Assembly (NCBI RefSeq): GCF_056712565.1
Contig: NZ_CM160072.1
Strand: one strand, 5' to 3'
Length of the DNA stretch: 64,000 nt
Part shown: positions 39,401 through 41,676 of the stretch, one piece after another
Layout: every line of letters starts with the position of its first letter
Position numbering within the stretch: the stretch's first letter is position 1
Program-made: the position numbers

Positions 39401-41676
39401 ACGATAACCGCGCATTCAACATGGCTACCTGTTCGTCGTTCATGTCATCAATCCACATACCGTAAATTTCATACACCATCTGCGCAGTTTCATGCCCCAT
39501 CTGGCTGGCTATAAATGCCGGGTTCGCTCCTGCCGTCAACAGCCAGCAGGCAAAAGTATGTCGCGTATGGTACGGATTACGGCGGCGAATACCAGCACGT
39601 TTTACTGCTGCATTCCATCTCGCTCCCAAATAGTCGTAGTGAAATCTGATGGGAAAGCCTTGCTTAGCATGCTGGTGTTGCGCTACCCGTACAGGATGCG
39701 GTAACACAGGAAGAAATTAGAACAGAAACTGTGGCGGACATTGTGCATTCGTTGCCAGGCGGAGAAATAGAACGCTACAACAGGTGCAGAATATAATTTT
39801 TCGCGAGTGCCAGAATAGCGATATTATGCAGTGTTTTTTAGTTTTCTATCAGGGGATATTTTGTGAAACTTTTCGGTGAATAAAATAATTCTCTGTAATA
39901 AATGATGAGTATGGTTGGTGGTTATATTTGCGCATGGAAATATTACATTAGACATGAATGTGTTTCAAATGAAAGAGCCATGACACCCGAATGGAGTTAG
40001 GGATTCATTACGTATCTAATCTAAAGAATAAGAAAAATACTTAATTCATTGTGGGTGGTGATGATATCTTGATATGTGAAAATGGTTCTCTTAATAAGAT
40101 GTAACTAGCTTATTACTTATCCATAGCACAAGAAATGGTCCTGTATCTGCGTTGCCATGAAATAAGATAGGCCTAAATGTAATAAAGAGTTGCATGACAA
40201 AATTACTAAAGTTCACAATAAAAAAGAATTAAGTTTTTTGTTCAGGTATTTTTTTAGTGTATTGTTTTGAAATGTTCTACGCTGCTCTAACCTTCAGTCT
40301 GAAGAGGGCTTGAATCGTGATGTCAGTTCGATTGACATAATGTTATTAATAATGTTTACGTTTGAATGTGAAATATGCTTAACTATGCCTTGATTGTTAA
40401 TCACAGGGACTGACTATGAGAAAAATACTGATGTATTTATGTATTAGCATATGGATTGTTATATCATGCGTGCCTATCATATTAACTAGCGAGTATTTAA
40501 CAGAGGCGAGTATAATGGCATTGATGTTTGGTCATGCCAATGCACTATGTATTGGGGTTTTTATTTCTATTATTTATATAGAATGCTGGAGGTAAATAGT
40601 GTGAACAGCATTAGTTTGATGATTTTATACTGAACTAAAGGGGGGAAGAGGTAACGAAAAAAGACCTCCACCAGGTACGAATCTGAGGCGGGCAGATGGA
40701 GGTCGATATCTACACGATTAAATTGATAAGTAAAAGCCCCATCAGGGATTGATTTTTTCGAGTCTAATTTAAAGTAATTTCAACGATTTGGCAGAATTTC
40801 TTAGAGTTAATGATTTTCAAGTTTTCGATTACCAGGAAAAAGGCTGGGTGCTGATAAAATAGTCATCTGCATTCCTTAAATTGTGTAAGGGTGAAAGGAT
40901 AAAGTTCAATTTAAAGGCGGTGCAATATTAGCACCATCTTATATATGTAATGATTGATTTGCCTCTTTATTCTACTGTTGAGATTATTGTTTTCGAAAAT
41001 TGATTATTATAAGCGCGAAAAGAAATGCTACAGCAAATAAGAGGACGATTGTCGGCGCTGGGGCTCTGTCGAGAAAATATAATAACCATACACCTGATAT
41101 TGTTATTGATATCGTTACGGCGATAAGTAATGCCTTATGAAAGCGATGCGTGATGAGGACAGCAATAGACCCTGGAGCTATTAATAGTATATAGACAGAA
41201 TAATTCCGACTGCTTTTAATGTGGCAAAAATGGTAGGCGATACCATGCAGAGTAAACCGTAATGTAATAATGATATCTGTAATCCGCTGACTTGTGCCTG
41301 TTGATAGTCAAGACAAAAATTCCTGAAAAAACGATACCTATAATGGTATCTTTCTTTATGATGCTATTATCTTTCAGATAGCCAGTTGCAATTGCACAAA
41401 ACAGTCCTACAATAAATGCACCAATTCCCAGCGGCATACCTATAATCCAGGCATAGAACTATGCCAGGAAACATTGCGTGGTTCATTGCATCTCCTATTA
41501 GCGCCCAGTCTTTTAATACCAGAAAAACTGATAATAATGCACAGGGGAACGATATTATAATAGCGATTATCAATGCATAATTCATAAATTTAAATTGTAA
41601 TGATTAGAGGGGAAAATGTCAGCACATTTGCGAAATAAATCAAAAAGCCCGCAGCAATGTGCGGGCGTTAGTGTCA

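Follow-up and report, generated by a model that had tools for sequence, protein, structure and literature searches.

A decayed sitD-type permease gene in an apparent Rac-like prophage scar between ttcA and uspF of Escherichia coli

The window analysed here is a stretch of 64,000 nucleotides from contig NZ_CM160072.1 of RefSeq assembly GCF_056712565.1. It contains, on the minus strand at 40984–41601, the relic of a gene for an ABC-3 family metal-transporter permease. By sequence comparison the relic is a SitD-type permease gene, that is, sitD, which encodes the second membrane permease and is the fourth and last gene of sitABCD. We hold it to be highly probable that this is a dead sitD, once part of the sitABCD-type cargo that a Rac-like prophage in ttcA carried at its tail end, and that the prophage has decayed to a scar.

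The local gene order is dbpA, ttcA (38412–39347, minus strand), the region of the sitD relic, uspF (41674–42108, minus strand), ompN, MicC and nifJ/ydbK. The sequence is of the uropathogenic E. coli type. Over bases 40700–41700 it has 100% identity with E. coli ATCC 11775, UTI89, S88, APEC O1 and similar strains. The recognised strains among these exact matches belong to phylogroup B2. Between the window and UTI89, only 8 positions differ across the first 40,243 bases.

Identity of the Relic

A sequence-only reading of this DNA had proposed a decayed ABC-3 permease gene from two overlapping minus-strand open reading frames (ORFs) in different frames, a GDAxxH-type segment and a further frame break downstream. 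Each of these features was found. The first ORF (41367–41585, 72 aa) matches the ABC-3 profile of Pfam (PF00950) at 46.9 bits (E = 3e-12, profile positions 5–50). The second (41216–41437, 73 aa) lies in another frame and scores 30.9 bits (E = 2.6e-7, positions 56–98). Both are above the gathering score of 20.1 bits. Two more segments, in other frames downstream, cover profile positions 154–191 and 195–257, with scores of 30.1 and 32.6 bits among the four ORF fragments. After correction of the frames, the predicted product of the relic scores 145.9 bits (E = 2e-42), which is far above chance. The GDAxxH-type segment lies in the first ORF and reads LIGDAMNHAMFPG; its counterpart in SitD is LMGDAMSHAVFPG.

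The reading had placed the permease with MntB, SitC and ZnuB. The family assignment holds, and the subtype has to be changed: the nearest relative is SitD, which is preferred over SitC by tblastx, and not ZnuB. Against an E. coli sit operon, the tblastx segments show 67–82% identity to sitD and 32–48% to sitC. A search of the corrected product against 5.8 billion proteins returned thousands of ABC-3 permeases. The best named matches are SitD or metal/iron ABC transporter permeases of Enterobacterales and a few other Gammaproteobacteria. Genomic context was fetched for four homologues, and each is the fourth gene of an operon ordered binding protein, ATPase, permease, permease. The SitD-type assignment follows from these three results. 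The relic also retains the sitD motifs GDAM(S/N)HA(V/M)FPG, DYQQAQVSGL, LHYGLLCMVS, TLKAVGIILS and APAPTIV. NCBIfam has no SitD-specific model and is unable to decide the subfamily, since both the relic and genuine SitD match its AztB, SloB and ZnuB-type models with scores below the cut-offs.

The gene takes in the span first proposed for it, 40990–41585, and extends slightly further on both sides; its true extent is 40984–41601, from codon 9 of sitD to a TAA stop at 40984–40986, in four frame segments. Pfam hits, SitD identity and alignment to intact sitD genes all support this extent. The NCBI Prokaryotic Genome Annotation Pipeline (PGAP), in RefSeq, also calls a frameshifted pseudogene, "metal ABC transporter permease", at 40984–41585 in UTI89, Nissle 1917, ST131 and others.

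Lesions in the Gene

The lesions were read from a nucleotide alignment of the relic with five intact sitD genes. At the 5′ end, SitD homology begins at codon 9 (approximately 41600–41601), 16 bases upstream of the ATG at 41585, and codons 1–8 are lost. This ATG is the internal Met14 of SitD, and no Shine–Dalgarno sequence precedes it. A single inserted T at 41453 causes the first frameshift (+1). An internal deletion of net 169 bp at 41312–41319, seen in the nucleotide alignment, by tblastx and with Pfam, removes about 56 codons (ABC-3 profile positions 99–153) and shifts the frame. A −1 deletion at 41188–41189 makes the third frame change, and a deletion of 6 bp at 41094–41095 removes two codons in frame. 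A functional ABC-3 permease has an uninterrupted frame of approximately 260–290 aa; here profile positions 1–4 and 99–153 are absent and the frame changes three times.

A comparison of the window with Nissle 1917, with ST131 and with L003, an assembly from a metagenome run, distinguishes old lesions from recent ones. The truncation, the 169-bp deletion, the −1 deletion and the 6-bp deletion are common to all four relic variants. The +1 insertion at 41453 is absent from Nissle 1917, ST131, L003 and all intact sitD genes, and is thus private to the window/UTI89-type lineage. L003 has an additional 1-bp deletion at 41256, and strain 8178 carries an ISEc40 element within the relic. Across three B2 lineages, divergence is 1.1–1.8% in the relic and the adjacent AT-rich DNA, compared with 0–0.8% in ttcA, uspF and ompN. 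The frame status, the insertion and the pattern of divergence all fit a neutrally drifting pseudogene.

SitABCD-type importers require a periplasmic binding protein, an ATPase and two permeases. Three of the four genes are gone here. The remaining one, the fourth, has lost its start together with roughly a fifth of the membrane domain and has to be read in four frames. The sequence-only reading had noted that partner ATPase and binding-protein genes are absent, and this stands. No gene for a binding protein, an ATPase or a second permease lies beside the relic, which is flanked by uspF on one side and by unannotated AT-rich DNA on the other. The window contains no sitA, sitB or sitC, and the operon context of SitD-type genes is thus missing at the relic, which points to a deletion of the operon partners. 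The relic lacks its partners, and it has neither a ribosome-binding site nor a start codon in context; it is therefore predicted to be non-functional. Iron/manganese transport activity would not be expected from a product so truncated and frameshifted.

The Prophage Scar

Rightward from ttcA, identity with E. coli strains that harbour Rac persists (by megablast) up to 39630, which falls in the 3′ portion of intR, the integrase gene. Perfect identity to non-B2 E. coli, including K-12, resumes at 41602, 72 bases beyond the stop codon of uspF. If the start codon of ttcA (39347) is taken as the left limit, these boundaries give a lineage-specific insert of 39348–41601, approximately 2.25 kb of low-GC DNA. 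The junction between relic and core DNA was placed at 41594–41602 from the megablast break and from blastn comparisons with K-12 and with the locus of strain STN0717-11 (L005). Positions 41594–41601 are ambiguous and could be a microhomology. Of 5426 complete E. coli genomes, 1043 carry the scar, counted as a match to at least 80% of the query 39300–41700 in one place.

The island was said to be foreign, and we can be more specific: its boundaries and gene remnants identify the insert as what a Rac-like lambdoid prophage, once integrated in the 5′ end of ttcA, has left behind. The attachment region on the attL side is the 5′ end of ttcA itself (39298–39347, minus strand). Positions 39301–39340 match ttcC′, the duplicate of the ttcA 5′ end, of L005 at 12726–12765; the similarity of the IMG/VR locus L065 to the window stops at 39298; and the attR copy of K-12 is annotated as ttcC. 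Adjoining attL is a 3′ fragment of a Rac-type intR (39399–39629, minus strand), recognised by PGAP and by 96–98% DNA identity to intR of Rac lysogens, so that an integrase gene stands beside attL. A 51-bp match of 76% between this fragment (39552–39602) and the junction DNA of K-12 was taken as probable chance. At the far end, attR (ttcC′) is absent, and the window holds one copy only of the ttcA 5′ core.

Fragments of other phage genes lie between the ends. At 39642–39862 (plus strand), pieces of DUF1627 and then DUF977 genes, which belong to the early genes of lambdoid prophages, give 75–85% DNA matches to prophage genes, and PGAP calls a pseudogene at 39642–39757. A remnant of a type I toxin gene of the hok family follows at 40651–40716 (plus strand). 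Its DNA is 80–82% identical to that of hok/mok loci in lambdoid phages, one of them a Rac record, and tblastn with HokD gives 59% identity. Only the C-terminal half is present, with an in-frame stop (VTKKDLHQVRI*GGQMEVDIYT, where the asterisk is the stop). The fragment is unannotated in RefSeq.

The remaining DNA, 39863–40983, approximately 1.1 kb, is AT-rich (30–39% GC) and contains no recognisable gene except the hok fragment. Outside scar-carrying genomes, only that fragment was matched when this DNA was searched against E. coli genomes, phages and plasmids. An ORF for a hydrophobic peptide of 59 aa lies within it at 40416–40595 (plus strand). A terminator-like hairpin at 40918–40936 (minus strand), 48 bp past the stop codon of the relic, may be the terminator of the old sit operon, by consensus match.

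Two records labelled as plasmids, NZ_CP141085.1 (385 kb) and CP054253.1 (253 kb), hold the whole scar at 98–99% identity. They may be mislabelled chromosomal fragments or large chromosome-derived replicons.

Intact Counterparts at the Same Site

The relic had been taken as the remains of a once-complete metal-uptake operon, and a check for intact operons at this position had been proposed. Such operons exist, in the same orientation as the relic, and they support this idea. In STN0717-11, tail-fibre genes are followed by sitD, sitC, sitB and sitA (all minus strand), the ttcA 5′ duplicate (ttcC′) and uspF. In enteroaggregative E. coli (EAEC) 042, the left end reads ttcA-intR-xisR-ralR-recT and the right end sitD-sitC-sitB-sitA-uspF, arranged as in STN0717-11. 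The junction sitA-attR-uspF is found in 495 of the 5426 genomes. Empty sites also occur, with ttcA directly beside uspF in some genomes. In the IMG/VR contig L058, sitABCD forms one stretch with the att core and a complete integrase gene. This is the attP arrangement, and it shows that sitABCD belongs to the phage genome. Another published prophage that carries sitABCD as a moron is Perceval of strain LF82 (PMC9928086).

Comparison with STN0717-11 defines what is missing. The DNA absent from the window corresponds to L005 9747–12867, that is, sitD codons 1–8, sitC, sitB, sitA, the right end of the phage, attR and approximately 100 bp of core DNA. A single deletion across attR would explain the missing partners, the fusion to the uspF flank and a remnant unable to excise. 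The intrinsic terminator hairpin of uspF (41647–41666, minus strand) is core DNA and was untouched by the deletion.

From these data the following course of events can be proposed. A Rac-like lambdoid prophage in the 5′ end of ttcA would have carried, as cargo at its tail end, a sitABCD-type iron/manganese importer operon. In an ancestor of the scar carriers (those recognised being phylogroup B2), it would have been reduced to the 2.25-kb scar. One internal deletion would have cleared nearly all of the DNA from intR to the cargo. Another would have taken sitD codons 1–8, sitC, sitB, sitA, attR and approximately 100 bp of core, and would have fused the relic to the sequence immediately beyond the uspF terminator. 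The 169-bp deletion, the −1 frameshift and the 6-bp deletion would then have been acquired, and the +1 frameshift would have been added later in the lineage of the window. The order of the deletions is what we infer.

Several observations weigh against this account. The relic has only 69% DNA identity to the sitD genes of present-day prophages at the ttcA site. The DNA downstream of the relic is unlike the DNA downstream of sitD in L005. With no sequence continuity of this kind, the same type of phage and the same cargo position are argued from position, orientation and the flanking phage fragments. No trace of sitA, sitB or sitC survives, and a complete phage-borne parent operon would therefore be a matter of inference. 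Finally, proteins, GTDB representative genomes and IMG/VR yielded no closer intact relative.

In L065, from another strain (IMG/VR UViG_2684622582_000011, positions 2508–4745), the scar is followed, from the ttcA att core, by three ORFs that resemble cdtC, cdtB and cdtA. This assignment was made by eye from the translations. The arrangement suggests that a second phage with a different cargo has used the attachment site adjoining the scar.

A Divergent sitD and Its Source

The relic has 68–70% DNA identity to chromosomal or plasmid E. coli sitD genes, with no intermediate class among the 5426 genomes. Its product shares 67–70% amino-acid identity with SitD of five genera, whereas those proteins are 82–88% identical among themselves. 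The GC content is 37%, compared with 47–63% in intact sitD. By codon position it is 0.44/0.36/0.32, compared with about 0.55/0.41/0.56 or higher. Among the 5.8 billion proteins, the best intact relatives reach 55% over the full length or 74–78% over half the length; P0001, which alone goes beyond this, is another strain's copy of the relic. In GTDB representative genomes (100,000 species), the best identity over a local segment is 74%, and the relic is in no other species. In IMG/VR the matches are all to the relic itself or to ordinary sitD genes. These comparisons set the relic apart from the present-day sitD of E. coli, of which it is no decayed copy.

The low GC content and the 30% divergence might instead come from a long, AT-biased neutral decay, in place, of an ordinary E. 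coli-type sitD. Such decay would agree with a GC content below that of intact sitD at all three codon positions, and with a relic equidistant from all enterobacterial SitD. The nonsynonymous divergence (dN) of the relic from the other sitD genes is likewise 0.20–0.22, compared with 0.08–0.13 among intact sitD genes. The synonymous divergence (dS) between the relic and intact sitD is saturated, which gives no dN/dS estimate for the relic branch. However, there is no in-frame stop in the 204 corrected codons. Approximately 5% of random substitutions make a stop, and this limits the neutral phase to about 60 substitutions or fewer, approximately 10% of sites, at 95% confidence. The divergence among the three B2 lineages is below 2%. 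Downstream of the relic the AT content is just as high, which suggests that the source segment as a whole was AT-rich. We therefore regard long neutral decay as an unlikely cause. Because the stop-free codons limit neutral decay and the neighbouring non-coding DNA is equally AT-rich, the parent was probably a distinct, lower-GC sit lineage that was functional until fairly shortly before the deletions.

A larger proposal can be built on this, and we find it evenly balanced. The relic would be the only surviving trace of an otherwise unsampled low-GC SitD lineage, brought to the B2 ancestor by an ancient Rac-like phage. The ttcA–uspF site would have received metal-uptake cargo at least twice independently, and B2 would later have re-acquired a modern sitABCD elsewhere.

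The divergence of the relic from present phage-borne sitD (69% DNA identity) also bears on whether a phage was involved at all. An ancestral chromosomal metal-uptake operon between uspF and ttcA could have predated the phage, with the phage fragments a coincidence. No phage gene is contiguous with the relic, the nearest being the hok piece about 270 bp away. However, in empty-site genomes ttcA adjoins uspF and leaves no space for an operon. The relic lies on the phage side of the expected attR, and the ancestral core between ttcC′ and 41602 is missing. The whole of 39863–41601 is uniformly low in GC and is found only together with the intR, DUF1627 and DUF977 fragments. The relic occurs in no representative genome of another species. 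A chromosomal origin is thus quite improbable, and the phage-borne cargo remains the preferred source.

Least probable is that the relic has been reused, as a small membrane protein (the 72-aa ORF or one of 199 aa), a transcribed spacer or a promoter region for ttcA. The 204 stop-free codons and a continuous 199-aa ORF in some strains (P0001) might suggest a protein; but that ORF is a chance product of the extra 1-bp deletion in L003, with its middle out of frame, and the ATG at 41585, being Met14 of SitD, has no Shine–Dalgarno sequence. The frame state varies among lineages, an insertion element interrupts the relic in one strain, and the relic is more polymorphic than the neighbouring genes. 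A promoter-like site at 41622–41594 (minus strand; CTGACA-17-TACAAT, 10/12) does point into the relic towards ttcA, although in this AT-rich stretch such matches hardly exceed those in shuffled sequences (15 compared with 9.2 ± 3.0).

That site, 41594–41622, is the best match in the region and lies across the deletion junction, with its −35 element in core DNA and its −10 element in the relic. At the same place K-12 has CTGACA-17-TACCAT, which may be the orphaned original ttcA promoter. The putative junction promoter is the sole feature of the relic that could matter to the cell.

Other Features of the Window

An Rfam scan of 39300–43800 (E up to 1) returned only MicC, at 43607–43727, and nothing in the relic or the scar. 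At 53070–61384 (plus strand) lies a giant repetitive gene. UTI89 has it as a single coding sequence of 8316 bp, whereas in the window it is broken into two ORFs, of 1491 and 1274 aa. The split is due to a 1-bp deletion near 57530, where UTI89 has GGCAACAG and the window GGCACAG. RefSeq names the 2771-aa repetitive product of UTI89 "EntS/YbdA MFS transporter" (MFS, major facilitator superfamily), which looks like a misnomer; the protein is probably the YdbA autotransporter. RefSeq marks further pseudogenes upstream of the relic region, at 29211–33124 by the UTI89 annotation: one hypothetical gene is partial, and a LysR-family fragment and a DHA2-family MFS efflux permease (31669–33124) are both frameshifted.

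Discussion

Part of this picture was already known. The pseudogene is in the RefSeq annotation of over a thousand genomes, and a prophage-borne sitABCD at the ttcA site has been published for EAEC 042. In the literature on sitABCD with uspF or ttcA, we found no paper that describes the relic. Our analysis adds the sitD assignment, the list of lesions divided into ancestral and recent ones, the deletion across attR and an otherwise unsampled sit lineage. Prophage scars of this kind are routine, and the relic is an ordinary pseudogene. It offers no new mechanism and addresses no open question.

The scar is nevertheless a tidy example of a prophage with useful cargo that has decayed to a small, fixed remnant. 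The attachment site in ttcA is reused with different cargo, sitABCD in 495 genomes and cdtABC-like genes in one locus. The scar offers an easy way to recognise its carrier lineages, and the generic annotation of the pseudogene could be sharpened to "sitD pseudogene, prophage remnant".

Three known systems are close to what is described here. The first is SitD of the SitABCD importers (Yfe-type) of E. coli, Shigella and Salmonella. The four segments of the relic are collinear with it, and orientation and position relative to uspF are equal. Unlike SitD, the relic lacks 8 N-terminal and approximately 56 internal codons, has three frame changes and is without partner genes.

The second is prophage 042p3 (ROD21) of EAEC 042, together with related Rac-like sit prophages. 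These share with the scar the site in the 5′ end of ttcA and the 3′ end of intR (96–98% identity), and their sit cargo lies at the tail end beside attR and uspF, in the orientation of the relic. They are approximately 50 kb long, with an intact sitABCD and attR, whereas the scar is approximately 2.25 kb, has attR deleted and holds another sit lineage.

The third is Rac of E. coli K-12. It has the ttcA attachment site and intR in common with the scar, and both are degraded and fixed in their lineage. The K-12 prophage, 23 kb long, still has its attR (ttcC′) and carries no sit genes, whereas the scar is ten times smaller and has lost attR.
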